A stretch of DNA of 64,000 bases from Hydrolagus colliei (Eukaryota). The stretch spans positions 558,001 to 622,000 of the forward strand of contig CM068769.1 of NCBI GenBank assembly GCA_035084275.1, written 5' to 3'. The first letter of the stretch is position 1, and every line of letters starts with the position of its first letter. The notes beneath the pieces are model-generated. The model had not been told where the DNA came from and made no database searches. It worked only from the letters and a program-made list of their open reading frames with translations. This document shows, one piece after another, positions 773 through 29,164 of the stretch. A program made the position numbers and the translations under genes.

Positions 773-1593
773 CTGGGCAGACACATGGCAGATGAAGTTT
801 AATGCAGAGAAGAGTGAGGTGATGCATTTTGGGAGAAGAAATGAAGGGAGGCAATATAGGCTAGATAGTACAATTTTAAATGATGTGAAGGAACAGAGAT
901 ACCTGGGGATATGTGTTAGTGACTCGTTGAAGGTGGCAGGACAGGTAGACAAGGCTGTTAAGAAGGTATATGCGATACTAGGCTTTATAAATAGGGGTAT
1001 AGAGTACAAAAGTCAGGAAGTGCTGACTAACCTCTATAAGACTTTGGTGAGGCCTCAGCTGAAATACTGTGTTCAATTCTGGTCACCACACTACAGAAAG
1101 GATGTGAAGGCATTGGAAAGGGTACAACGAAGATGTACTAGGATGGTGCCAGGTTTGAGGGACTTCAGCTATGAGGAGAGGCTAGATAGGCTATGGTTGT
1201 TCTCTCTGGGGCAGAGAAGACTGAGGGGAGACCTAATAGAGGTTTATAAGATCATGAGGGGTTACGACAGGGCAAATAGAGAAAAACTATTTCCACTCGT
1301 GGGCGAATCTGTGACTCGTGGTGACATATTTAAAATAGTTTCAAGGCGAAGTAGAGGGGTGCTGAGGAGAAATCGTTTCACTCAGCGAGTTGTTCGAATC
1401 TGGAATGCATTGCCTGAAAAGGTGGTGGAGGCTGATTCGATAACAACTTTTAAAAGGGAATTAGATCTTTATTTAGGGAGAACATGTCTATTAGGCTATG
1501 GGGAGCGGGCAGGGCAGTGGGATTGAATCGCTCTTTTCAAAGAGCCGGCACAGACTAGATGGGCCGAATGGCCTCCTTTTGTGCCGTAAAATT
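773..1593 (+). mobile_element. CR1 LINE, 5'-truncated (RT C-terminus and 3' UTR)
   Basis: ORF 792-1526 (WQMKFNAEK, YCVQFWSPHY, RRLRGDLIEVYKI) is typical CR1 ORF2. Highly similar to the copy at 57470-58225. Confidence 0.92.
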
Positions 1594-1652
1594 CCTGTAC
1601 AAAAACCTTAGCATGTTTTTGTACAGGTCCTTCGTAAACACACATCACTGTG

Positions 1653-2096
1653 CTCTCCGCACAGAAGTAAGTGGCGGAGTCAGACACTCGCACGTCTTGG
1701 ATCGATAACGTGCTGTTTTTTCCAACAGTCAAAGCATTTATCCTCTCCTTCTGCTTCATCTCTCTCGATCCCAACACCAAGTAAGTGATGGAGCCGTTTC
1801 CATGCTGTTTGTACCATTGAAACCCTGGGCTGGACACTGTGGTGCTGCACTCCATAATTACATTCCGATTTTCATTCTCTGTCACAGCCTGAGGTCTCTG
1901 TGACACTTCACTTTCAGCCAAGACACCTGGGAACATAGAATATTCTTGGATAGTATTTCATAAAGTGTCTGCAATAGAATTTATAATTATGTACCAGGAA
2001 AACCAGGATGCGTGTGTCCATTCTGATACTCTACTTACACAAGATTGTGGCAAGTAAATAAAAAATTATATATGGTGCATTAAAATCCTGCTTCAT
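1653..2096 (-). CDS. TCR alpha/delta V segment V1 (family B), apparently functional
   Basis: Leader 2096-2039 (MKQDFNAPYIIFYLLATIL, 58 nt, phase 1, GTAAGT donor). V exon 1926-1653 (VLAESEVSQRP...MEC...FQWYKQ...DSATYFCAES). RSS CACAGTG (1652-1646)/23 bp/ACAAAAACA (1622-1614). Confidence 0.92.
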
Positions 2097-2657
2097 TCTC
2101 AAGTCTTTTCTATTCGCGTCAAAATGTCTTATTGATGTACAGTGGGAAATCAGCTACAGGCTGATAAATGGTTGCAAATTTTTGTGGAACGCAGTTAGCC
2201 ATGCAGATTATAAGTAGATTCTCAGTGACACCTTCACACACTTCTCACTTCCTGTATGTTTGCTTCTGCAGAATTCATTCGCCAATTGGCTAGCCACTTG
2301 CTGCTGGTTAGCGGAGGTTTGCATGTGTGTGAAGTTAGCAAACGTGACTAATGTTTCTCCCACCCTAATTGGTTCCCAATCAGGCGAGATTTTGGGCAAA
2401 TATACTTACTCCATACACATACACCTCATTTTAGTTTAGAATAAGGAGGAAAACGCAGCTTAGTCCATTGGTGGTTTACTTTGCTGGGGATAATATTCCC
2501 CATCTCCAAAATGTTCTACATCAAAGGCAAGCAACACTAAAATAATCATTAATATTGATAGTATAATTACTACCATTATTATTAATATCGCTGTCCAGTC
2601 ATCTATGTAATTATTTGTACGCCTTGAAGCATGTGAACAATATAATTCTTCTGCACC

Positions 2658-3223
2658 TGTGAAACTAAAAAATCGTCTCAGTACCTTGGTTGGGGTTTCT
2701 GTTCACAAATATGTGACTCGGGTGTGTGATTCAAACAAGTTTATTTAGCATTCATGAAGCGGTGCACTAGGTTGCTACAGACTCTCGTCCGTCTACTACT
2801 AGTGCGCACTTAGAACAACCTTTACATGGGTAGTTATACACTTTTAGTTACATGACTCATGCTGGGTTACAAACAACATGGTCTTGCAGCTGTATTACAA
2901 AAACATCGTGGCCTTGGAATAGGCCGGCTACAGCTTTCAATAATAAGATAGCCTAGAAGCAAGATAAGATAACCAAGCCTAGAGCTTTACAATTATATCA
3001 TAGCCTTGGTATGCCTGCCAGACACCCTTATGGCCCCTGTTATTCGCATCTTTCTGTAACAGGCTCACGGGTGTCGGCTAGAGGTTAAATCAAAGCGTAC
3101 GTACAGGTTTGCAAGTAACTATTATGCGTAACGTATGTACAGGTTTGCAAGCAACTATTATGCGTAACGTAGCAGACGAGCAAATAACCACTATTCGTAC
3201 ATGGCAGACGAGCTGACTTCTCA
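2658..3223 (-). repeat. ERV 3' LTR
   Basis: Matches 8651-9216 except T3136 vs C9129. AATAAA on minus at 2745-2740. Two 36-bp tandem repeats in U3. Confidence 0.96.
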
Positions 3224-3236
3224 TTCCTTCCTTTTT
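3224..3236 (-). promoter_or_regulatory. Polypurine tract
   Basis: AAAAAGGAAGGAA immediately before the 3' LTR on the minus strand. Confidence 0.85.
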
Positions 3237-3255
3237 GTCATTCCATGACAACCTG

Positions 3256-4714
3256 CTACTCGAATGCTGAGAAATCATCGTCAGGAGCCATGTACAACAT
3301 TGCTGCCGGGGCATCCCAGCCTGTCATCATAGATAGTATAAGTTTTTTGAATAAGGGTATACAACAACATAATACAACTACCAGGATTATAACAATTATG
3401 ATAATAAATGTCAAAATTTTAGTCATCCAACCGCTAATCGACCAATCGGTCAACCAACCCCATATACCAGGGCTTACGTTAGTCCGATGCAATTCTCTGA
3501 CTTGTTGTCGGATGTGTTGTACAATATTAGTAATATTCTCAGAAGCATCCGGAATATAGGTGCAACATTCAGAGCCAATCAAGGCACAAGTGCCTCCCTT
3601 TTCAGCAAGCAATATATCCAGAGCCATCCGGTTTTGGAGGGTTACAGTGCGAATAGCCACCATTTCAGCGGATATGTCTTGTAAGGCATCCGCGGTTTCA
3701 TTCGCAACAGCCTCCAAAACCGTTTGTAAAGCCCCCAATGCTTGATTAGTACGGAGCAGACCATATGGTGGCACGAACATACCAAAAATCTGTTCATACC
3801 ATCCTACAGCTCTACGTTTGACATGATTTGTGATGTGCGGGTGTTCCGAAAGTTTTGTAATATGTAGGTGTGGGACAACGTATCCGAGGTAGCATGTACC
3901 GCTCCAGTTGGTTGGTAACCATGGGTATGCCAATGTCCCACACACCCAGTATGTCCTATTAGGGCTTTATAGAGGACCCGTGGTGTTCAGAAACATCCAA
4001 CAACTGGAACCAAAGTTATCTGCCCCTTCACTCCAACCAGCACTGAAGTCTACTGACAAGGTGATCGTAGTGTTACATATACTTTCCCCCATCCGGGTCC
4101 CATTACCGGATCTTTGGAGACACCATTGCCCATGCGAGAGTGACACGTGTATGAAGGGGGGGGTCGTTCTTAAAGTTATACTGGCGCGTATACCAATCCC
4201 GAGTTTCCCTTAACATAACGAGACATGCGGTATCATTATTCCCTGAGACGCTAATCATATTGAAACCCGACGTTCTTAGAGCCTGCATTTTACTAAAAGG
4301 GACTATCAACGTGGAAAAAACCCCTCCCGCACTGTGTGGAAGGGCCGCACACACCCAACAGCTTGATCCTCCCAGCGTCACCGTTGTTTTGTACGCAGTG
4401 AGGAGAAAAGTATTTGCTACCATGGAGCATTCTACTTCTGTGTCCAGCATCATCCCCAATATCATCAGAATCCCTGTCCATTTTGCAAGGCTGAAATGTG
4501 GATATCGTAGGCCCTGCCCAAGCAGTCTCTGTTTTTCTGATCGTGTCGGCCCACTTCGTCTCCCGAAGGCATCGAACGTCTTCCACCAGAGTGACAGGTA
4601 GTTCTTCATCGCCGACGTCCACAACGTCTTCGAGCTTCTTTCCACGACTTCTTCGAGCCTGTAGGAACAAAATTGTGCACTAGGACGGGACAATGGTGAA
4701 GGCAGTAGCATCAT
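3256..4714 (-). pseudogene. env: ERV envelope (SU-TM), disrupted
   Basis: SU has CWVC (CXXC). TM has furin site VKRR, ISD LQNRMALDILLAEKGGTC, CX6CC (CALIGSECC) and a membrane anchor. One frameshift lies in the 4106-4209 overlap (probably the C8 run at 4156-4163), and one in-frame TAA is at 3969-3967. Confidence 0.93.
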
Positions 4715-4726
4715 GTTGTTTACACT

Positions 4727-6343
4727 TCATGATTGTTTACACTCAAGTCGTTTACAATCATGTATGTGAACCCAATGATCTCTCCCCTCTAATTTAACCG
4801 CAGTTGGAGTTGAGAGGAGAACTTGGAAGGGACCTATCCACCGGGGGTCCAGGCATTTCCTGACCCAATTGCGAATCATAACATAATCACCGGGGTGTAA
4901 AGGAGGATCAGGTAAACTAATATTGTTAGAGGGACTGGAAACTGTTGTTTGATTAATACGGAGAATGGTAGAAAGAGTTTTGATATACTCCACCATGTCA
5001 GCAGACATATGAGTAAGCGAAGAGGAAGCCGAAGCCGACCAAGGGCCTATTAAAGAGCGCCCATAAATAATTTCTGCTGGAGATAACCGGGCAGTTCCAG
5101 TGGGGGCCGAGTGAATCTGAAACAATACAAGAGGCAAAAAGCGGACCCATGAAGAGCCATGCCCCCTTGTAAGTTTAGCCAGTTTTGTCTTAATCGTCTG
5201 ATTGACTCGTTCCACTACGCCCGCCGCTTTGGGATGATAAACACAATGAAACGACTGTTTAATGTCTAAATGGGAACAGAGAGAGCGGTTAACAGAGGCA
5301 ATAAAGTGAGGGCCGTTGTCGGAAACTAAACGACCAGGCACCCCAAAACGAGGAATTATTACCCGTAACAACAATCGCACAACCGTCTCAGCAGTATTGT
5401 TTACCGTTGGAAATGCTTCAACCCAACGGGAAAATACATCAATGATAACCAATACATAGTTGAAATTCTGACATTTAGGTAACTGAATAAAATCCATCTG
5501 AAGCACCTCAAATGGAAGTTGAGGTACAGGGGTATCACCGGTGACCACTGGGAACCCTTTCCCATGATTGTGCTCAGAGCACAACAGGCACCGGAGGACA
5601 GCTTTCTCAGACAGCTGCATCATGCGTGGGTGCCACCAGGTCTGAAGGAGCCACTCAGAGAGCTGTTTACCCCCCGAATGAGTCTGTTGGTGACCGCAGG
5701 CGACTACCCATCCTGCCAGCTCATCAGTCATGCAGGTCTGACCGACAGGGGTCAACCAGACCCCTTCCTCGGATAGGGCACAGCCTTCTTCAACCCATGA
5801 CTGACGAGTTGCCACCGGAGCGTCCTCCTGGAGTAACACAATATCATAAACAGAGGGCATGTTAGTACGTTGTTTGGGAATAATGGGAACCACAGTTTTA
5901 ACTGGATAGGTACCAAGTGGGGCCTCAGCCACTAGTTTGGCACATCTATCCGCATGTCCATTTCCAAGTGAGACCGGATCCTGGGCCAACGTGTGGGCAG
6001 AACATTTCACAACCGCTAACTGAGCAGGTTGCAGAGCAGATTGTAGGAGGTTGACAACTTCAGTACCGTTAGAAATGGGATGACCCGATGAAGTTAAAAA
6101 TCCACGGTTTTCCCACAACCTCCCAAAATCATGAACCACGCCAAAGGCGTAGCGAGAGTCAGTATATATGGTAACCGGTTTTCCCACAGCGTGTTTACAA
6201 GCCTCCGCAAGGGCAATTAGTTCACAGGCTTGGGCAGATTTAGGAGGAACCAGTTTCTTCATACAAACTGGGGTTCCATCCTGTAAGGAGCTGGAGCGAA
6301 AAGTATAAGTTATCCCAGAAGAAGTGGCTGCATGAAATGCCAT
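4727..6343 (-). CDS. pol: Truncated pol: degenerate RNase H plus intact integrase (538 aa)
   Basis: SAQACEL and IYTDSRYAFG RNase H motifs, with the first motif changed to YTFRS instead of TDGS. Integrase has HHCC (HQQTH...CLLC), DDE (MDF / SDNG / VERVN) and C-terminal GPFQV. No RT or protease motif found in the provirus. Confidence 0.92.
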   Translation of the reverse strand: MAFHAATSSGITYTFRSSSLQDGTPVCMKKLVPPKSAQACELIALAEACKHAVGKPVTIYTDSRYAFGVVHDFGRLWENRGFLTSSGHPISNGTEVVNLLQSALQPAQLAVVKCSAHTLAQDPVSLGNGHADRCAKLVAEAPLGTYPVKTVVPIIPKQRTNMPSVYDIVLLQEDAPVATRQSWVEEGCALSEEGVWLTPVGQTCMTDELAGWVVACGHQQTHSGGKQLSEWLLQTWWHPRMMQLSEKAVLRCLLCSEHNHGKGFPVVTGDTPVPQLPFEVLQMDFIQLPKCQNFNYVLVIIDVFSRWVEAFPTVNNTAETVVRLLLRVIIPRFGVPGRLVSDNGPHFIASVNRSLCSHLDIKQSFHCVYHPKAAGVVERVNQTIKTKLAKLTRGHGSSWVRFLPLVLFQIHSAPTGTARLSPAEIIYGRSLIGPWSASASSSLTHMSADMVEYIKTLSTILRINQTTVSSPSNNISLPDPPLHPGDYVMIRNWVRKCLDPRWIGPFQVLLSTPTAVKLEGRDHWVHIHDCKRLECKQS

Positions 6344-7749
6344 TCTTGTCAGTATCTGTGAGAACTAAATTACAAGGTGAAATCTCATGTTTCTTTAAAC
6401 ATTTTCAGTTGTTAACATGACATTATCATTACCTACAGAAACACTTTCAGCTGATGTGGAAACCAAAGGGTTACGTAAAGTCATTTTGTCCACATAAACC
6501 AGAGTGCCTGCAGTCAGTGAATTTAAACTGCCCACAGTCAATGGCTGCAGGAAATTCTAACTGCTGCAAGTTAACTGCCACAAGCTAATTTATCCATATT
6601 TAATTTCTACAAACATTTTAAGTAAATGCTAGAATACACAAAATAACGTTTACTCTACTTTATCGCTTCGTTCTTGCGTCAAATATTCCAAATTATTGGT
6701 TGTATTTTTACTTTGCTATTACTCAGTACATATGGAACGTGGGTAGTGTCTGGCTTATACTCTGCGTCCAGAGAAAAGTCAGGCCTATCACGGTCCGGTA
6801 CTTTTTAAAGAATCGAAACCTATGGAACATGGATGAAATCTGGCCATACTCTGCGTCCAGAGCAAAGTCAGACCCACCAATGTCCTCTTTAAATGCATAC
6901 ACTACATAAACCATACAACAAAAGCTTCTCTTCAATTTGCTTTCTTTTTTTTTAATTACTGCTCATTCAAGCTAAACCATATACAGGTACAAACATTTTT
7001 TTTTACACATCTTTTACACAAAAAAAAGGTAACACATTGAGCTCAAGTTTTCTTAAGGACCGTACAGTCACAACTTCCTTCGGGGAAAACTTTCAATTAG
7101 GAGTATTGTGACTGTTCGGATTGCTCTTTTTAAAGAATAGTTAGGGAGGCACAAGTCTATCAATAATATGCAGAGTGGCCTCAAACTCATGCTGTGACTT
7201 TTGGCCTTCCCCAAATACTCATTCAAAGGGTCGCAACATACCCCATAGAGACCGTAAATTCAGGTAGCAATTGCTTAAAATTTGTTTTTTTTTCACCTGA
7301 CATTTTGTCATCACACTTTCTTTTTAATCAGAACAAGTGGTGTTATTGGAACATCAAATCCAAATTGTTTTCATTTCAATTTTATGTGTTTTTACGTATT
7401 AAAAAAACGTATTCTCAGTCAGGTTAATTTAAAAAATATGCCTGACTTGTTGGAATTTTCGAACGTAAGTCTCTACATTTAATTTTTTTAATCAATTTTT
7501 TTTTAATCAATATACATTTGGTTTTCGACTGTCTGGTCTTTGACTTTCATTTATCTGTTGTAGCATAACATAGTTAAATATATAAAACAATTGTATTAAT
7601 TACCCATACTTTTTAAATTCTTATACTTTAATAATAAAAAAAATTACAACCTTTTGCTTTAAACAAAAATCACAACCTTATGCTTTAAACTAAAAATTAT
7701 TATACTTTAAATCTTATTCCTTACAACCTTAAACTTTAATTCTTATACT

Positions 7750-8210
7750 TTAAATCTTATTCCTTACAACCTTAAACTTTAATGTTCTTATTCTACTTTT
7801 AAATAAACAATTGGGACCATCCTCAGGGGAGGGAACGGGTACAGGTTTCTGGCGCATTTTCACTCGCGTCCGAAACCGAGTGTTTTCGGCCGGTCCCCCT
7901 GAAAACCTAGTTGCCTCCTCTCTCTCTCTCTTTCTACATACTTCTTCCTTCAACCTGTCCAGTGGTTTATACACTCCATCGCGGGTCACACATATACCGT
8001 GTCTTTCAGCAGTGTTTTGCCAACTGGATAACGTTTCTTTTGCCTGTTTTCTCATAGCTTCCTCTAACCATACTCTCACCAGTTTTCTACATGGCTTATA
8101 TTTATCTTTCTTCCATACCAACTCTTGCACCTTCTTTAGTACTGTCACATCATTTGAGCCTCCCAGAGGCCATACTGTCTCTCCCAATTGTTTATTTAAC
8201 ATTACCCATA
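7750..8210 (-). pseudogene. gag: gag matrix remnant
   Basis: ATGGGTAAT (MGN) at 8210 is out of frame with ORF 8202-7750, which contains VWPLGGS, resembling the gamma-type MA WPxxG motif. No capsid or nucleocapsid follows. Confidence 0.6.
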
Positions 8211-8630
8211 CTTTTTTAATTAACCTTAAACTTTAAACTAAATTAACCTTAAACTTTAAACTAAACCTCGTGCACTTTGGAACCTGCTGCACCCAGCTTG
8301 TACGCCTTTTTTATTCCGTCGACGGTCCTTACCCAGTAAGATTTGAACCTGCTGCACCCAGCTTGTACGCCTTTTTTATCCCGTTAACGGTCCTTACCTT
8401 AGTAAGTTTTTAACTGAATACACACCCACCAACCTTTTCTTATCCCGATCTCATTAACGACTATCAGTTACGCATACGGTTGGTGCATCCCCGGAAGCCT
8501 ATTACGTAGGTGAAAAACACTGAGAGTATTCAAAAATAGATGATATACTCACTGGGCTGCGCAATTTCACTTAGGCAAAAAAAACTCAGGGATTGTCCCG
8601 CCGTCTACGCACTGTCTTAGTCGTCACGAG

Positions 8631-8648
8631 ATCCCATCCTCGTCGCCA
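8631..8648 (-). promoter_or_regulatory. Primer binding site complementary to tRNA-Ser(GCT) 3' end
   Basis: TGGCGACGAGGATGGGAT, 2 nt after the 5' LTR. It is the reverse complement of ATCCCATCCTCGTCGCCA, the vertebrate tRNA-Ser(GCU) 3' end as recalled from knowledge. Confidence 0.88.
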
Positions 8649-8650
8649 AA

Positions 8651-9216
8651 TGTGAAACTAAAAAATCGTCTCAGTACCTTGGTTGGGGTTTCTGTTCACA
8701 AATATGTGACTCGGGTGTGTGATTCAAACAAGTTTATTTAGCATTCATGAAGCGGTGCACTAGGTTGCTACAGACTCTCGTCCGTCTACTACTAGTGCGC
8801 ACTTAGAACAACCTTTACATGGGTAGTTATACACTTTTAGTTACATGACTCATGCTGGGTTACAAACAACATGGTCTTGCAGCTGTATTACAAAAACATC
8901 GTGGCCTTGGAATAGGCCGGCTACAGCTTTCAATAATAAGATAGCCTAGAAGCAAGATAAGATAACCAAGCCTAGAGCTTTACAATTATATCATAGCCTT
9001 GGTATGCCTGCCAGACACCCTTATGGCCCCTGTTATTCGCATCTTTCTGTAACAGGCTCACGGGTGTCGGCTAGAGGTTAAATCAAAGCGTACGTACAGG
9101 TTTGCAAGTAACTATTATGCGTAACGTACGTACAGGTTTGCAAGCAACTATTATGCGTAACGTAGCAGACGAGCAAATAACCACTATTCGTACATGGCAG
9201 ACGAGCTGACTTCTCA
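8651..9216 (-). repeat. ERV 5' LTR
   Basis: 565/566 identical to 2658-3223 by manual comparison. Followed by the PBS on the minus strand. Confidence 0.96.
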
Positions 9217-10079
9217 CACCTAAGTTTAATTAATTGTTGTCAGTTTTATCGTGTTGCCAATCTACACTGAAACAATCTACCTTACTGTAGTTACCAAAAT
9301 CTAATGCAATTGTTAACAAAGTGAGATCCGCTAGAATGCGGATGCTTATGTTGGAGAAAGACAACAACATGAATATATGACATCCCCATTACCTTTTCGA
9401 GCAACCTAAGCCTTGCGATTGTCATGGTTACGATTTAGACAAACCTTTGAACATTTCAGCAGAAGCAGCAATAATACGTAGGAGTTAACCAATGTGGACT
9501 GTAATAGGAAGCACCTGTTATAGCTGTCAAGGTAGATTGACACAGAATGGAACGTGGCAAGCTATGTCAATTGCAGATGGTGTTATATGTGTGGTTTGTC
9601 TGCCATCTGCTGGCGGACTGTAGCTACTGCAAGAGCATAATTTAAAAGCAAGAGTTTTTTTGGGGGCCCTACATAAAGTTCCTGGTCCTATTGTCTCCAA
9701 TGGAAATTGATAGCTTGGTTCCATTTACTTGCTTTTTCCTCGTATTGTCTGTGCTTTAATGGGACACTCGAATTCATTCTCATTCACAGTCTCTTACTAT
9801 GACATATCCCTGATAATTGTTTCTCCACTTTAATTCTATTCCTTGCTCTGATCCTGTAAACGTTGATTATATTCTGCTTCACCTTGAGCTGGCATTCACC
9901 GTTTACATGACAGCAGCACAATAGTTACATGTGTTGGCACTATTCATTTGGCGATGATGTCACAATGCAGTGTATTTACTACTACATCAACACAAGAATC
10001 ACATTTGGGACGTCCTCCCGACGTGACAGGCGCTATGTAAGTACAATGTTGTTGCTGTTGTTCACGTCGGATGGACGTC

Positions 10080-10520
10080 CGAAGCCGCTAACCAGTCAGC
10101 TCGGGAACTGAGCAATGAAGAGGGCAGGGTAGTGGGGAGGGTCGTGAGGGAGGTGACAGTGGAGGGCGAGTGTTAGCAGCGAATGGACAGAGTGAGCAGG
10201 GCAGGAGAAGGCACGGTCGAAGTGTAGCGTCTTGAGACCGACATTGAAGGAGGCTATGGAGGCAGGCAGGTAGTCAGTCGAAGGGACTGTGGGAAGGAGA
10301 TCCAGAGAGCAGCGAATTAAAATCCTTCCAACGATAATAGGGCGGGTCAGGCGGGGGACAAGGAGCAGATCGGATCCCGCTGAACGGAGGGGGAGTGGAG
10401 ATTAATGGTACGACAGCAGATCGGAGAGCTGGTGGTTGGTAGGGGTGGCGAGGGGTTGGATCACGGGGCTGGCAAGGCCGTGCATGGCCTTAAAGGTGTG
10501 GAGGAGGATTTTGAATTGGA
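10080..10520 (-). mobile_element. L2 LINE 3' fragment
   Basis: Reverse complement resembles the L2 RT C-terminus (FKILLHTFKAMHGLAS...). Boundaries approximate. Confidence 0.65.
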
Positions 10521-11067
10521 AAACTGCATGAGAATTGACAAACAATCTGCAGTTTTATTTTTGTCACATAAATAATAAACTTTGTCCTCAATTCCTATTG
10601 CGTCATGGACCAACACAATCATGTCTTCAGTCTCTGTTTTTTTTCGAACCATTGATTGAACCTGTTGTATCTGCACATCCAGAACTGGTGTCACCTCTAA
10701 GCCACAGATGTCAAGCAGAGCATTGTTCATCGAACAGCCCAACAAACCAGGACCTTTGAATTTATGTCAGTGACAATAATATGATTATGTTTTATACACA
10801 AATTAATACTAGCGTTTGACTAAGCACCATATCACATATTTTACAGTAATTTGTACCAATGGAAAACGAATGTACAAATCAACTCACAAACAGGTTTGAA
10901 TTTAATACTGGGTAAACGGTGAAGATTAAGAAAACTTCAACACAGATTCGTTCTGCATGGAATTGAACCCAGGTTCCTCGCTGGCGATATGAGTGCTCTA
11001 CAAACTGAGCTATATAACTACACTTGGCAGTTGTTGTAGGGCGGAAGCGCTGATCTGTGTCTCTGTA

Positions 11068-11907
11068 GGGCTCATTTCACAGTAATACAGCGCCGAGTCA
11101 TTAACTCTCACTTCAGTTATATTTATCGGGACAGTTCTTCCCACTTTATCCACCATCGTTGAGAATCGTTTGTTTGTAAAGTCGGCGTATTGTGGTCTAT
11201 TGCTAGTGGACGTCGAAAGGATATTTTCTGGGGCTGTGTTTGGATAATGGCGCTACCAGAACAGATAAAGAATGCTTGTGCCTGTAGCTGTATAATTACA
11301 CCTCTGATACACATCCTCCCCTTCCTTCACTGTCACGGTAGATAGGAGCTGCGTCACAGAGTCTCCTCCACAATGTCCTGGAAATCAGACACATGTCAGC
11401 GTTCCGTAGAATAACACCAATAACAAGAATAATGTAGGCATATGACAAAACTACATCTTGCGTCTTCATGTTAATTAAACGTTTACTACTGAATGTAGTT
11501 TAACGCATACTGTCGGTTTACTTTACGGTCGAAACGTAGTAGACATTTGTACACAATAGTGTTCCACAAACAGGCGTGGATTGAGTAACTGTATTAACAT
11601 TATCAGTATCACAAATTGACAGATAATTACCCCCCAATAAAGCAATCGGCCAACGGACCATATTCGAAATTACTTCCCAGGAATCACAGCAATGCGTGAT
11701 GAGTGACAAAACTTGCCTAATGTTTCGCGCTGTCCGTGCCGTGGAAGGATCCCAGATAATCTCGATTGTGACAGCTCTATAAAGCTTGTTGTGTATTCAT
11801 TATGTTAACCAATATACACTGGATAATAAGTTCAGTTGGCTGACTACACAATGAGTGTATGGCTTACCTGACAAGGCAGTGATGGCTGCTGCCACATATA
11901 TATACAT
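11068..11907 (-). pseudogene. TCR V segment V2 (family A), pseudogene
   Basis: Leader 11907-11868 (MYIYVAAAITALS, GTAAGC donor). V exon 11377-11068 GHCGGDSVTQ...RCNY...YLFW*RHYP...DSALYYCEMS with TAG at 11255-11253. RSS heptamer TACAGAG has lost the CAC; 23 bp; ACAACAACT. Confidence 0.9.
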
Positions 11908-14280: not shown

Positions 14281-17200
14281 ACAACAACAACAACAAATTA
14301 CATTTATAAAGCGCATTTGACGTCGGTGGGACGTCCCAAGGCGCAGCACAGGAGGCGTGTGATCCGAGCTGGGAGGTGAGTGTACGCGGAGGGGTGAAAC
14401 ACGTAGGGGAGGTCGAAAAGTTCTGAGTGGAACAAAAGGCACGGTCGAAGAGGAAAGTCTTCAAACCGGCCTTGAAATTGGAAAGGGAAGAAACGAGACG
14501 GAGCGATTGAGGGATGGAATTCCATAAGCTGGGAGCGGTAAAACTGAAGGCCCGTCCTCTGATGGTGGGGCGGTTCGGGCGGGGGTTTTAGAGCAGGTCA
14601 AGTACTGCTGAACGGAGGGTCCGAGTGGGCTTGTAGCGGGAGAGTAGATTGGTTAAGTAGGGCGGGGCAAGGCCATGTAAGGCATTGAAGGTGAGGACGA
14701 GGATCTTGAATTCGATCCTCTGGAGGATGGGGAGCCAGGGGAGACGGGCTAGTGTGGGAGTTATATGGTCGCGAAAGCGGGTGCGGGATAATACACGGGC
14801 TGCAGAGATTTGGATAACGTGCAGCCTATGAATGGAGGAGATGGGGAGGCCGACGAGGAGAGCGTTTCCGTAGTCCAGCCTTGAGGTAGTGTATTTGTGC
14901 ACGAGTGTTTCGGTAGCGTGGGGGGTAAGATAATTGCGGAGCCTGGCAATATTGCGCAGGTGGAAATAAGCTGTGCCGGTCAAGGCACGGATGTGGGGGA
15001 GGAAGGAGAATTTTTGGTCGAACGTGATGCCGAGGTTCCTGACTGGCTTGATGAGGTGGAGAGTACAGCCTTGGATGTTGATGCTGGCAGCGCCCGATGT
15101 ACGGAGGAGCTGGCTTCTGCCAATCAGGAGGGCCGCGGTCTTACTCACGTTCAATTGCAGGAAGTTTTCCCTCGTCCAGGACTCGATGTCGGACAGACAC
15201 ACTGTCAGAAAATCGATGGCCTGGGGGTTGAGGTATGAGGCAGAAAGGTACAACTGGGTGTCGTCCGCATACATGTGGAAATTTACCCCATGTTTGCGGA
15301 TGGCATCGCCCAGAGGGAGCGTATAAATGGTGAAAAGGAGGCGGCCGAGGACAGAGCCCTGAGGGACGCCGTGAGAAACTGTGCGGAGGTTTGAGGAAAA
15401 ACACATTGGAAGATACAACGTGTAAACGGTGGGTGAAATAAAAATGGAACAATTCAAGGACTGTGCCTTGAAAGTTGAGGTGGGAGGAAAGACGTTGGAG
15501 GAGGATGGTGTGATCGACTGCGTCGAACGCAGCAGATAGGTCAAGGAGGACGAGGAGGCAAAGGGAGCCTGGTCACAGGCGGTTAGGATATCATTTGTAA
15601 CCTTAACTAGGGCAGTTTCTGTGCTGTGAGTGGGGCGGAAACCTGATTGGAGGGGTTCAAGGAGTGAGTGAGTTGAAAGGAAAGAGCGGAGCTGGGAGGC
15701 AACCACTCTTTCAAGGACCTTGGATAAAAACGGGAGGTGGGAAATGGGTCGATAGCTTGATGGTTGCGACGCATCAAGGGAGGGTTTCTTCAGGATAGGC
15801 GTGATGGTGGCGGTTTTAAGGGTGATAGCGACGGTACCTGAGGAGAGGGAATTGCTGATGATGTCAGAAATGAACGGGTCCAAAACGTGCAGCTGGGTGT
15901 GGAGTCGGGGGGGTGGATATGGGTTCCACTGAGCATGTGGTGGGTTTCATGGAGGTGATTATTTTTGTGATTAAAGACGGGTTAGTGGGGTTGAAAGTAT
16001 GAAATGGGGTGTGGGTGGGGGTTGATGAAACGGATGGAGGTGCGGAGGTGGAGAAGAGGTCGAGGGAGGAATCCGCGGAGCGGAGTTTCTCTATTTTGGA
16101 CTCGAGGAAGTCCAACATCTCCTCACAAAGTTCGTTTGAGGAGAGAATCTGCGAAGCGAGACAGGGGGGCGGAGGAGCTGGTTGGTCGTGGCGAAAAGGA
16201 GGCGGTGGTTGTCCTTCGCTTCCAGGATTATCGTGGAATATAAAGCTGATTTGGCGGTGGCTAGGTCGGAGCGGTAAAATTTTATGCGGTCCAGCCAGAT
16301 TTGCCGGTGGACCGTGAGGCCAGATTTGAGCCAGGTGAGTTCAGCTGCTCTCACTTGGCTTTTGAGGGAGCGGAGGTTAGTTGTGTACCACGTTGATTAT
16401 CGGGAGTGGGAGACGGTTCTGGAGGTGAGGGGGGCCAGGTGTCGAGGCTGGTGGAGAGGGTGTTATGGAGGGCGGTGGTGGCGGATGATCGGTCGGTGCA
16501 TAAAGAGTGCCACTTTGGGAGGAGGTCGGAGGTTTCGAGGGCAGAGTTGAAAGTTTGAGGGGGAATCTTCTTCCAGGGATGGTAGAAGATGGTGGTCGGT
16601 TTGGAAGTGGAGGGGGGATGGATAGAGTTGTTGAAAGAAATGAAAAAATGGTCTGAAATGGCCTTGTCGATGATGGTGACTCCAGAGACGTTGAGGCCTC
16701 GGGTGATCACCAGATCGAGCGGATGTTCGTGGGCGCGGGTGGCACTGTTAATGTGAAGGGAGAAGTTGAAAGACCAAAGTAAAGAGGAGAATTCAGAGGA
16801 AATGGGGTCAGGAGGGAGTGAAATGGAGGTTGACGTCGCCAAGAATGATGAGGCGATCAGAGGAAACGCAAAGGGAGGTTAAAAGTGAAGAGAAATCTGA
16901 AATGAAAGTGGGGGAGGGTTTGGGGGGGCCATGAACTAATAGGATTTTGAAGGAATTGTGGGAGGAGTGAGAGAGGGTGAACTGTTCTAAAGAGGGGAAA
17001 AAACCGGAGGAGTAGAGGGATAGGGCGAGGGATGAATTTGAAATGAGGGCCACACCACCGCCTCGACGGTTGGGTCGAGCGGCATGGACGAATTTGTAAT
17101 TGGGTGGTGTTGCATCTACGAGTGCGAAAGTGTCGCCTAGGGTAATCCCGGTCTCCGTCAGGGCCATGATGTCAACGTTCTCATCAAGAATGTGATCGTT

Positions 17201-18185: not shown

Positions 18186-18989
18186 AAAAGCTGCAGCATC
18201 ATGCCAGTTTGCCAAATAATGTACCAAGGATCTCTGTAGCCTGAGAAGTTTATTGACTCTGAATTTCTCCGGTACAAGAAAAATAATACATATGTCATCC
18301 ATAATATTGCGAAATTTACCGGAATCGCAAACAGTAAAATAATGGCTTTCTTTGGTTCTTCATCTCTGGATCACTGTCTCCCTCACCTCTATTCCTGTCA
18401 CCATCACTGTGTCCCCGCAATCTGCTGCGGGCTCGACTGGCCACCAGGTTGTGCCTGACAGTCAGGGCGTTCAACAGCAAAATCCCAACGAATGGGAGAA
18501 TTTGGGTTAAAACAAGGTCGAGGAGGTCAAACACATTCCATGGGATAAACGAGTAAACGCTTGCTTTGGCCACGCAAATCCACGATATGCTGTTAAATAT
18601 GAACTCTGGTTCATAGACAAAGTTCCAGGGAATGTTTAGCCCAATGAAGAACACACTGAGCCCCGCTATCACTGCAGCAGCTGTTTTTTCGGTGCAATAT
18701 TTAGTTTTCAGTTGTTGGCAGCAGATGGCGACATATCGATCGAAGGTTAAAGCTACAGTTAGCCAGACAGAGATTGCCGATGCTGCAGTTCTCAGCGCCT
18801 CTAGCAACGAGCAAACATGGGTGACGTTCACGAATGAATATGGGAAGTAGAAAGGAACAATGCGATAGAAAATCACCACAAAAATTACCATAATCAGATC
18901 AGGCACTGACATGGCCAGCAGAGAGTGGGAGACACATTTTGAAAGACCGCACCTCCCTCGGGACAGGATCAGAATGGCTACCATGTTAG
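18186..18989 (-). pseudogene. Rhodopsin-class orphan GPCR pseudogene, GPR139/GPR142-like
   Basis: Acceptor TCTCTGCAG|CT at 18990/18989, then NMVAILILSRGRCGLSKC...FDRYVAIC...PFVGILLLNALTVRH. A 1-nt deletion near 18345 shifts TM6 (restored: RKSIILLFAI...WMT). Ends at MLQLL in TM7 where the L2 begins. Confidence 0.85.
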
Positions 18990-19149
18990 CTGCAGAGAGG
19001 GTGAACGTAAAATGACCAGTTATAATAATCAATTTCTACAGTTCATTTTCTGCTGGTAGAGTAATATTTTCTGCTGCGCTTTCTGTTGGGTACTTTTCGC
19101 TTCTCACACATGAATTCACTATTTTTGCGACATCAAAGTGCGATGGAGA

Positions 19150-26299: not shown

Positions 26300-27122
26300 C
26301 CGACATCGGGCGCTGCCAGCCTCAATATACAAGGCTGTACTCTCCACCGCACAAATTCAGTCAGGAACCTCGGCATCACATTCGACCAAAAGCTCTCCTT
26401 CCTCCCCCACATTCGTGCATTGACCGGCGTCGCTTACTTCCACCTGCGCAATATTGTCAGGCTCCGCAATTATCTCACCCACCACGCTGCCGAAACACTC
26501 CTGCACGCGTACATCACCTCAAGGCTGGACTACGGAAACGCTCGCCTCGTCGGCCTACCCAGCTCCTCCATTCACAGGCTGCAGGTCATCCAAAATTCTG
26601 CAGCCCGTGTATTATCCCGCACCAGCCTCCGCGATCATATAACCCCCACCCTGGCCCGACTCCACTGAATCCCCATCCTCCAGAGGATCGAGTTCAAGAT
26701 CCTCGTCTTCACCTTCAAGGCCTTACACGGCCTTGCCCCGCCCTATTTAACCGAATTACTCTCCCCCTACAAGCGCACCCGGAACCCCCGTTAAGCAGGA
26801 CTTGGCCTGCTCCAAGCCCCCCGCCCGAACCGCCCCACCATCGGAGGCCGGGCCTTCAGTTTTTATGCTCCGACCCTATGGAATTCCATCCCCTAATCTC
26901 TCCGTCTCGTTTCTTCCCTTTCCTCTTTCAAGGAAGGTTTGAAGACTTTCCTCCTCGACCGTGCCTATTGTTCCACCCCGAATTCTTCGACCTCCCCTAA
27001 TTGTTTCACCCTTTTCCGTACACTACCTTCCCAGATCGGGTCACACGCCTCCTGTGCAGCGCCGTGGAACGTCTTCCCGACGTGAAAGGCGCTTTATAAG
27101 TGTAATTTGTTATTGTTGTTGA
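26300..27122 (+). mobile_element. L2 LINE 3' portion
   Basis: Closely matches the reverse complement of 14290-15085 (NSVRNLGITFDQKLSFLPHI...). Ends in a TTG-rich tail. Confidence 0.92.
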
Positions 27123-27505
27123 TGTTTCTCTCTCCCATAAACAAACAGTCAAATCACTTGACAATGTATTCTATGAAGCGCTGTGAGTCGCTTAGAGTAG
27201 TCGTGAAAAGCGATAAAGCGAATGCAAGTATTATTATCATTACTGCTGTTATTATCCACTTGTCTTAATTCCAACAAACATGTATCACAATCTTCTATCG
27301 GTTGATTAATCAACACATATAATACAGAGCTAGTGATGCATTTCCTTTTCTTTAATTGACTTGATATGAAGTAAATCAAGTGTAAGCTGTGGGGACAGAT
27401 AACTGATGGCTTGTTACATGGTGTCTCACTGCTCTTTACTGATTCCCAGCGTTTGGTTGTGATTAGGGTTATTGTACGAGGCTTCCTATGATGTGTATCA
27501 CTGTG

Positions 27506-27798
27506 GTGCAGACTGACTGCACAGTGATACATAGCGGAGTCTGGCAGCTGCAGGCTGGCGATGGATAAATAGCTGATTTTCTTGGCAGTGTCAAGAGAAG
27601 CAGAAATATGATCTCCAGTGGGGTTTCCTCCCTCTCCTGTAGTGTTTCTGTGGAGAAGGTATTTCGGTGCCTCACCAAGGGACTGACGGTACCAGGAGAC
27701 AATGAAATTCTGTCCGCAGAATCCTGAGTATTGGCATTGTAAATCCACTCTCTCTCCAGCAATAGACTTTGTTTCAGGCGGTGACTGGTGTATCGATC
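27506..27798 (-). CDS. Leaderless supporting V-delta segment of a NAR-TCR cassette
   Basis: Acceptor CCCTCCACGTAG|GA directly before SIHQSPPETK, with no convincing leader exon. LQCQYSGFCGQNFIVSWYRQ has an extra CDR1 Cys (27718-27716). Ends DSAMYHCAVSLH. RSS CACAGTG (27505-27499)/23/ACAATAACC. Confidence 0.85.
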
Positions 27799-29164
27799 CT
27801 ACGTGGAGGGAATCACAGGATAGTGAGCATTTCAATGGCATAGCGTTGTACAGCAATTAAGGAGGACATTAGGACAATTATTTATTTGCCAGCTGTTTGG
27901 GGCAATTGTCCAACTCATCCCACTTCCATTGTTGCCCCACATTCTTGACACATTTTGCTTCTGCATTACTCCACCGGTCCATTTCCACTTTAAAATGGAT
28001 AGTTTAACAGGCTTATGCAAGAATATCAGGCAGCGGATTGCAGATTATCATAACTTTGAAATTTATAACAAATTCTCTTTTTCTCCCGTTTGCTTCTTTT
28101 TTTAAAAAAACTTTAAAACACATGTCCTTTGATTACTGACCCACTGGCCAATGGAAACAGTTTCTATGCTCCCCTTTTATCAGATACTATTTTAACATTC
28201 ATTGCACTCATGAAAAGTTGATCTCTTTGTATGTGTCAATTGCTTCTTTGCTGTAACCATTCTATTAAATCGTCTTTCAATAATAACCAATACTTTAATA
28301 TCCTTCTTATCCTGTCAATAAAAGACACTTTAGATACACTTTTCACCTAAACCATAAAGTTACTCTAATAATAATACTTGCATTTGTTTTTGCGCTTTTC
28401 ATGTCCTCTAGCAGCCTCAAAAACCTTCAAAGAATATACTGTAAAGTGAATTGACTATATGTGAGTGGACGAAGCGCGGCACCCGAACAATAATAACACT
28501 ATTATTACTGTTTTAATATAGGCGATTTTCCCAATTTATCGACGTCGCAAAGCGCTTCACAGAATATACTGTAAATTGGAATGATTCTATATTTGTGGGA
28601 CAAACGCGGCAGCGAATTGCGCACAGCAGTGTTCCTCACAAACAGTCGTGGATTGGTTTGACCAATGTAGATTATTGTGGGATTTTTTCACGGATTATTA
28701 TTAGAAGTGTGGAGAAAGGTAACTTGCCCAAGGTTTCGCCCTATTCTTGCTGGATTCGAACACGGGTCTCACGCTTGTAAGTGATTGCGATATCCACTGA
28801 GCTATAATCCACAATAAAATAGTTTAACTGATTCTATACGGGTTTGCTGTTGTAGATTGCCCCCACTGAAGACCTGGTTGTCTGTGATCATGGGAATGTT
28901 TAGCAGAGAATCAGATGTCGGTGTACACAGTTAACTCCGTTGAATTAAAGTTGAGTAAAATGGAATTCCCCTCTGTAAATGTCGTGACATTAACATCGCT
29001 GCTGGAGGAGGTGAATTAAGTCTCTGGCTTGTTTCCAAAATCAGTTTTGTCTCAGTCTGTTAGCCTCTAAATGCAGTTTCATTTTTGCCAGAAGAAAACT
29101 GCTTTCCATAAAAAGTGTTAAATAATTGCTTAAATATGTTTGTTTCTTTGTTTGTGCATTTGTT

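Follow-up and report, generated by a model that had tools for sequence, protein, structure and literature searches.

Among the described systems closest to the element considered here, an endogenous retrovirus (ERV) in a 64,000-nucleotide stretch of the genome of the chimaera Hydrolagus colliei (assembly GCA_035084275.1, contig CM068769.1, positions 558,001 to 622,000; hereafter the window), is recKoRV1 of the koala, whose ends are those of the koala retrovirus (KoRV) and whose interior comes from PhER, a degraded element. In the accessible part of its description, recKoRV1 joins the ends and the 3' part of env of a young retrovirus to an older, degraded interior whose parent has dissimilar long terminal repeats (LTRs), has many copies with target-site duplications (TSDs), and relies on the intact virus (PMC6112702). 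Mouse ETn/MusD elements are class II (beta-like) and env-less; the available text describes elements that do not code, that retain some homology to retroviruses, and that are mobilised in trans, as shown by experiment, by coding relatives which they outnumber (PMC6466679). In cattle, ~6.8-kb defective copies of ERVK[2-1-LTR] make up 85% and ~10-kb competent copies 15%; these D-type and C-type elements are beta-like, their activity was measured in sperm, and capture of a third family's interior is not seen in the accessible portion of the paper (PMC10924933). The elephant shark, also a chimaera, has epsilon-like ERVs (CmiERVs), of which three nearly complete insertions and fragments are described, with no non-autonomous recombinant family in the accessible text (Han 2015, PMC4977317).

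The ERV in the window is, with good probability, a young copy of a large family of class I ERVs without reverse transcriptase (RT), a patchwork of three donors that likely borrows the Gag, RT and integrase of its relatives. Two of the donors are lineages with RT-bearing members, here called A and B; the third, LTR family C, is the probable source of a 1.3-kb stretch of the interior (the 'filler'). As far as the available parts of the cited papers allow comparison, the family has the traits listed above for recKoRV1, reliance on an intact virus being likely, and differs from it in having three donors and an extra allele of the env surface subunit (SU), a 3' piece of pol with a crossover inside integrase, B-wrapped and A-wrapped stages that coexist in one genome, a donor C that is itself young, and a cartilaginous-fish host. 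The likeness to ETn/MusD lies in non-coding elements with retroviral traces outnumbering their coding relatives; unlike ETn/MusD, the family is of class I, carries a broken env, has a filler donor that is found in the genome, and is only presumed to be mobilised in trans. Like the cattle D-type elements, its defective copies outnumber the competent ones (compare 105 with 13 junction matches, below), and like the CmiERVs it resides in a chimaera. The family belongs to none of the recKoRV1, ETn/MusD and cattle D-type families, and a literature search, thin on subscription journals, gave no paper describing it. What is likely new is the combination of three donors and a probable switch of helper with the intermediates present, the type of parasite itself being already known.

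A young provirus without reverse transcriptase

The provirus lies on the minus strand, reading from 9216 to 2658 (Table 1). Its paired LTRs, each 566 nt long and with TG..CA ends when read on that strand, differ at one of 566 sites, at 3136, and the flanking 4-bp TSD, CACC, is perfect. In all five of the empty paralogous flanks examined, the two sides are joined through a single CACC, and the insertion is therefore real and not a product of assembly collapse. The provirus is thus real and young, in agreement with the initial annotation, which had called the integration recent; youth is judged here from LTR identity (substitutions per site), not in years.

The insertion site (window 1155-2657 and 9217-11450) is within a segmental repeat that has at least 18 long copies with 83-98% identity, nearly all of them on contig C36. 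A contig in run X1 that joins 2653 to 9217 was considered as an empty allele, but C36 and C265 hold 18 or more repeats of the flank. Given this repetition and the six other letters at which the contig differs, it may represent a paralogue, and polymorphism of the insertion is not thereby shown.

The class I hallmarks are all present, namely TG..CA LTRs, a tRNA primer site, a polypurine tract and a short TSD. The primer site is complementary to tRNA-Ser(GCT), and both genomic matches of the corresponding pattern are that tRNA. The gamma-type env motifs CXXC, ISD and CX6CC are likewise found, together with matches to MLVIN_C (E 5e-13) and TLV_coat (E 3e-19), and the element is a class I (gamma/epsilon-like) ERV.

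Capsid, protease and RT are absent, as had been noted from the sequence at the outset; tblastn with the gag and pol of a relative recovered only an N-terminal piece of gag and pol residues 789-1307. That earlier picture of the interior needs amending in two respects: a gag piece (8200-7916) is present, and env, which had been taken as kept, shifts frame near 4161-4142 and runs into a stop codon at 3969-3967. Env is interrupted in all 42 rows of the family that were compared.

RT-bearing relatives

An RT-bearing relative with the same LTR type and primer site, which the initial annotation had called for, does exist. Three rows of lineage A share with the window the U5 region (97-99%), the leader (97%) and the primer site, and their LTRs are 4-9 substitutions and one 36-nt unit apart from the 3' LTR of the window. 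Their gag and pro-pol share a frame and are separated by a single TGA; an env frame is also present, and two of the three are without other break. In L021, 680 codons are followed by the TGA and then by 1307 codons with RVP, RVT_1, RNase H and rve. Lineage B rows have the same primer site, and their LTRs match that of the window over part of the length only, at 78-85%.

The pol proteins of these relatives group with skate and shark ERVs (support 100, starred), and the pol tree, which is unrooted, has no outgroup and omits the rearranged L033, places this group tentatively on the epsilon (WEHV1) side (93, unstarred). The best named protein match for the relatives' pol, at 53%, is from Leucoraja.

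The pol of L021 has, between protease and RT, a spacer of ~240 residues (L021:5273-6022, minus strand; pol residues ~110-350) with two H-x-T motifs 60 residues apart. Such a pair resembles that of a 2H phosphoesterase; as a 2H domain the spacer gave no match in Pfam, PDB or Atlas, and a literature search found no paper on it.

A mosaic with one crossover in common

The affinities of the provirus change along its length. The RNase H part is 96-97% identical to lineage B and 85% to lineage A, integrase 3' of the crossover is 97% identical to A and 86-87% to B, and the transmembrane subunit (TM) of env is 97-98% identical to A and 75-77% to B; the gag piece is of B type, the leader and LTRs of A type (Table 1). 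The 190 informative sites divide in the same way: in the window, B letters stand at 76 of the first 82 and A letters at 104 of the last 108. The change from B to A is at 5537-5525 in 40 of 42 family rows and at 5501-5483 in the other two, and this shared interval means that one founding recombinant explains the family. The divergent SU patch represents a further env allele, seen in seven of 79 rows compared and in 17 genomic matches.

Size and age of the RT-less family

The exact junction between filler and pol, diagnostic of the RT-less form, has 105 matches in the genome, so that the RT-less copies number at least 105, and the initial expectation that deletion and filler are common to many copies is borne out. 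Uncut RNase H at the same place, as in the RT-bearing form, has 13 matches, three with lineage A letters and ten with lineage B letters. Searches with the LTR, the pol remnant and the filler gave 427, 866 and 443 candidates, of which 40, 81 and 40 were scored; the 60 stretches compared were picked among the best-scoring matches, and the sample is biased towards copies like that in the window.

Both LTRs are present in 40 RT-less A-type rows, the window included, and 32 of these have a 4-bp TSD, representing 30 distinct sites. At 16 of the 30 the LTRs are identical, and the mean distance is 0.0027 substitutions per site. As is the case with non-autonomous ERVs, the family is thus without capsid, protease and RT and yet numerous in young copies flanked by TSDs, and it shares LTR and primer site with coding relatives. 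It also has the recKoRV-type traits of a foreign, degraded interior from an element with dissimilar LTRs and of disrupted reading frames, the pol remnant of the window being open but truncated.

The filler and its donor

The region 6300-7800 is AT-rich (GC fraction 0.21-0.38), as the initial annotation had it, although strong repetition, which had been ascribed to the filler as a whole, occurs only at 7599-7782 (GC 0.20). A 22-nt motif just upstream of the start of pol homology has 185 matches at no more than two mismatches, well above the 105 junctions. Twenty extra filler loci were compared, drawn from these 185 pattern matches (100 listed): two are junction variants and 18 run on into non-pol sequence, and 14 of the 18, which have neither A nor B LTRs, constitute family C.

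The primer site of family C matches tRNA-Ser(TGA), unlike that of the window, in all seven rows examined; TSDs are present in four of the seven, and LTR pairs differ by 0-9 substitutions (four pairs). Donor C is still young by LTR identity. Its LTRs have no blastn match to those of A or B. Of gag and integrase no more than traces survive in its interior, the decayed integrase trace (E 5.6e-23) being continuous with the filler; the interior matches the window from 7598 to 6288, mostly at 95-98%, including the in-frame ATG and the letters for YTFRS. The uninterrupted family C junction has 109 matches at no more than one mismatch. The 3' pattern of tRNA-Ser(TGA/CGA) has 28 matches, many of them on the ERV-rich small contigs C36, C265, C357 and C506.

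YTFRS (6307-6293) had been read as the first RNase H motif, altered and shortened by a small deletion. This is rejected, as DNA homology to pol starts only at 6287-6285 and the same letters extend, with no change, through those family C elements in which pol is missing at that place; the RNase H of the window is cut at its N end, the first catalytic Asp being missing. The proposal that decay predates integration survives in part: the interior is older than the insertion, yet it consists of captured foreign pieces and not of the element's own decayed gag-pol.

Two kinds of element stand between the three donors. L063, L064, L070 and L073 carry no pol, and B-type LTR sequence surrounds their C interior. 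Two of them, L063 and L064, are complete: they have a gag piece and env TM, and their LTRs are one substitution apart. In L031, L032 and L078, B ends enclose a C interior and a 3' piece of B pol, with the same junction as in the window; the L031/L032 variant of the junction accounts for nine of 100 listed junction matches (hand count).

Other identities of the filler were tried and discarded. Decayed pol was searched for with a profile of 41 pol proteins in six frames, and structured RNA in Rfam, each with no match at E 1. A host intron or exon, suggested by an acceptor-like AG, is contradicted by all 20 extra loci, which are of retroelement type, with no single-copy source among them.

At one locus, L065, the 5' part and the filler are of family C, and next comes an integrase that is 50% identical to lineage A and 65% to a skate protein; env traces are also present. 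The element (L065:5788-6776, as oriented in the comparison) is possibly a fourth donor or a coding relative of family C. It also bears on a further recKoRV-type trait, the lack of reciprocal recombinants in which donor LTRs surround helper genes.

Proposed origin and order of events

We propose that family C RNA was copackaged with lineage B, and that template switching may have left B ends on either side of the interior of C. Recombination with lineage A on both sides would then have given the A LTRs to a B-wrapped form that had a 3' piece of pol, and the A-wrapped form would have amplified in trans. Homology for template switching could have been provided by the AT-rich repeat patch, of which 7736-7599 matches the A leader (127/138 positions) and 7809-7737 matches family C and the A leader alike. 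Lineage A would supply Gag, RT and integrase, and it is A's LTR ends and primer site that the family presumably took over and now carries. The shared LTR type and primer site of the RT-bearing relatives and the size of a family with a common deletion make movement in trans, which the initial annotation had proposed, the likely route. The family is then likely a parasite of the recKoRV or ETn type that has changed its helper by capture of LTRs. LTR swapping between autonomous and non-autonomous partners among plant LTR retrotransposons is reportedly, to judge from its title, the subject of a soybean study by Du et al. in 2010; there too, the tie between a non-autonomous element and its helper would change when LTRs are exchanged.

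Several points weigh against this account. Mobilisation in trans is read from sequence and is not itself an observed event. The filler tree (34 rows; L076 omitted, as its block is missing) favours C as the donor without fixing the order. The two rows that diverge most in it are C; rows of the A family fall together with pol-bearing B rows among C rows, on branches that are unstarred (94/92 and 87/88), and pol-less B rows form a separate clade (97/100, starred). The order of events is to that extent not proven. These same branches, along with the segment 7810-7920, the source of which was not found, are what one would cite for a reversed or reticulate history, in which the filler entered a B-type virus first, from some host source, and C later, or in which A took its B and C parts directly, with no stable B-wrapped form in between. 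We consider such a history unlikely, as it is among C rows that the filler diverges most (75-82% to the window), the filler in C is continuous with the decayed integrase trace, and the A family and pol-bearing B rows share one filler-pol junction.

A TSD is absent in eight of the 40 rows, and some copies share flanks, so that the counts include duplicates; DNA-level recombination, segmental duplication or assembly duplicates do inflate the copy numbers. Could ectopic recombination, gene conversion and duplication of this kind account for most of the mosaic and its many copies, with no need for copackaging and reinsertion? Both flanks are common to L011 and L012, to L036 and L041, and to L050, L052 and L058; L005 joins the flanks of L004 and L014; and there are tandem clusters on C20, C22, C34 and C42. 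With 30 distinct sites that have their own 4-bp TSD, 16 of them with identical LTRs, one crossover common to 40 of 42 rows, and empty paralogous flanks around the window's copy, a mostly DNA-level origin is nonetheless quite improbable. The copies that join flanks of two insertions (L004, L005 and L014; L034 and L035) are either inter-provirus recombinants or assembly chimeras.

Within the preferred scheme of copackaging and amplification in trans, we mention a tentative extension, rather doubtful though less so than the alternatives just discussed: that the C interior is a selfish cis-acting cargo, with an advantage in packaging, dimerisation or export, which has been relayed from C to B to A, three wrappers with unrelated LTRs. 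If so, each wrapper would have out-amplified its helper, with all stages young in one genome, and a retroviral parasite switching helpers would be directly visible, with ~214 cargo-bearing against 13 RT-bearing junction matches.

The proposed origin extends beyond mammals a process proposed from koalas, in which recombination with a resident element of greater age degrades a young retrovirus, and the product goes on to spread at its helper's expense. Since the donor, both helper lineages and the intermediates are readable in one assembly, the order of events and the ratio of parasite to helper can be tested with population data.

The open integrase frame

The frame 6364-4730 of the window is open over 545 codons, with HHCC and DDE residues intact, just as described in the initial annotation; it has RNase_H, Integrase_H2C2 (below cut-off), rve and MLVIN_C. 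The further suggestion that the family is under selection to keep integrase fares otherwise. A stop at codon 244 (5635-5633, sense in the window), in the B-derived part, is common to 37 of 42 A-type rows, and some stop is present in 38 of 42. L033 and two of the RT-bearing B rows have the same stop. In the genome search, whose ranking favours open frames, a stop is present in 64 of 69 RT-less rows (hand count). The 124 alleles new to the family comprise 30 synonymous and 94 non-synonymous ones, with 32.5 synonymous expected, which gives a ratio of non-synonymous to synonymous change (omega, or dN/dS) of 1.11 (p 0.68). A value near 1 had been set beforehand as the outcome that speaks against selection. 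The RT-bearing relatives have omega 0.08-0.14. A selected or domesticated integrase would show omega well below 1 and frames open in most copies; four of 42 are open. As part of the overall explanation given above, the open RNase H-integrase frame of the window is likely a neutral passenger, and a single RT-less copy with such a frame cannot be taken as evidence for selection.

Some of the data point the other way. The open frames (the window, L001, L034 and L035) represent three independent sites, as L034 shares the flank of L035, and are spread over two or more parts of the tree, although a common clade of the five A-type rows that lack the codon-244 stop is not rejected (p-AU, approximately unbiased test, 0.07). 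Before any splitting of the alleles, dN/dS within the family is 0.61-0.74, all 161 variant alleles as first counted have omega 0.69 (p 0.026), and the value of 1.11 was reached only after 37 alleles shared with RT-bearing or B rows had been set aside. We read the low omega of these 37 (0.17) as due to import by recombination.

A family that keeps a working integrase would use the C-derived acceptor-like AG and the ATG at 6343 to make a spliced RNA, from which an RNase H-integrase protein would aid insertion. The long intact frame with its in-frame ATG, the open frames in two parts of the tree and the raw dN/dS of 0.6-0.7 agree with this, but many of the 37 rows with the codon-244 stop have identical LTRs, and variants new to the family are neutral on either side of that stop (1.23 upstream, 1.05 downstream). 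The acceptor-ATG motif is moreover found in 15 of 20 filler loci, 18 of the 20 being without pol after the filler, so that the motif was likely inherited with the filler. Retroviral integrase enters the virion within Gag-Pol, which the window frame cannot make. Altogether, a working integrase of this kind is very improbable, the least probable of the explanations considered.

Map of the element and neighbouring DNA

Table 1. Segments of the provirus and its target site, in window coordinates
Feature	Position	Strand	Basis or remark
Target-site duplication CACC, left copy	2654..2657	.	Single CACC in 5/5 empty paralogous flanks
3' LTR, lineage A type, two 36-nt tandem units	2658..3223	-	LTR comparison; no match to family C
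Polypurine tract	3224..3236	-	Read off sequence; adjoins 3' LTR
Broken env (TLV_coat; CWVC, ISD and CX6CC motifs)	3259..4726	-	TM 97-98% to lineage A
Divergent SU patch within env	3962..4252	-	No DNA match in RT-bearing rows compared
Integrase core and C-terminal domain, lineage A type	4727..5525	-	104/108 informative sites A-like; rve, MLVIN_C
B-to-A crossover inside integrase	5525..5537	-	Common to 40/42 rows
RNase H cut at its N end, and zinc-binding part of integrase, lineage B type	5537..6287	-	76/82 informative sites B-like
LTR family C interior (filler), with in-frame ATG at 6343, acceptor-like AG before it and YTFRS letters	6288..7598	-	E.g. 341/359 identical to L069 over 6646-6288
AT-rich patch with repeat units of 43 nt and 14 nt	7599..7809	-	Repeat analysis; matches to A leader and C
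Short segment common to B-wrapped filler elements L063 and L032	7810..7920	-	Weak gag-like match
Gag N-terminal (matrix-region) fragment	7916..8200	-	92% to lineage B, 78% to lineage A
Leader, lineage A type, with 65-nt tandem repeat	8217..8630	-	97% to lineage A
Primer-binding site, tRNA-Ser(GCT)	8631..8648	-	Complementarity
5' LTR, lineage A type	8651..9216	-	LTR pair comparison
Target-site duplication CACC, right copy	9217..9220	.	

Elsewhere in the window, an immunoglobulin V-set frame (27152-27856, minus strand, E 5.7e-14) suggests that the stretch may sit in an antigen-receptor-like gene cluster. The minus strand also has a fragment of a Rhodopsin-family G protein-coupled receptor (18319-19035, 7tm_1 E 3.5e-13) and an RT fragment of the type of long interspersed nuclear elements (14591-15946, RVT_1 E 3.5e-22). 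Segments 14282-15100 and 26303-27121 form an inverted pair with 87% identity, and 36452-36776 matches a part of the L069 flank at 84%, likely as an interspersed repeat of no relation to the provirus.

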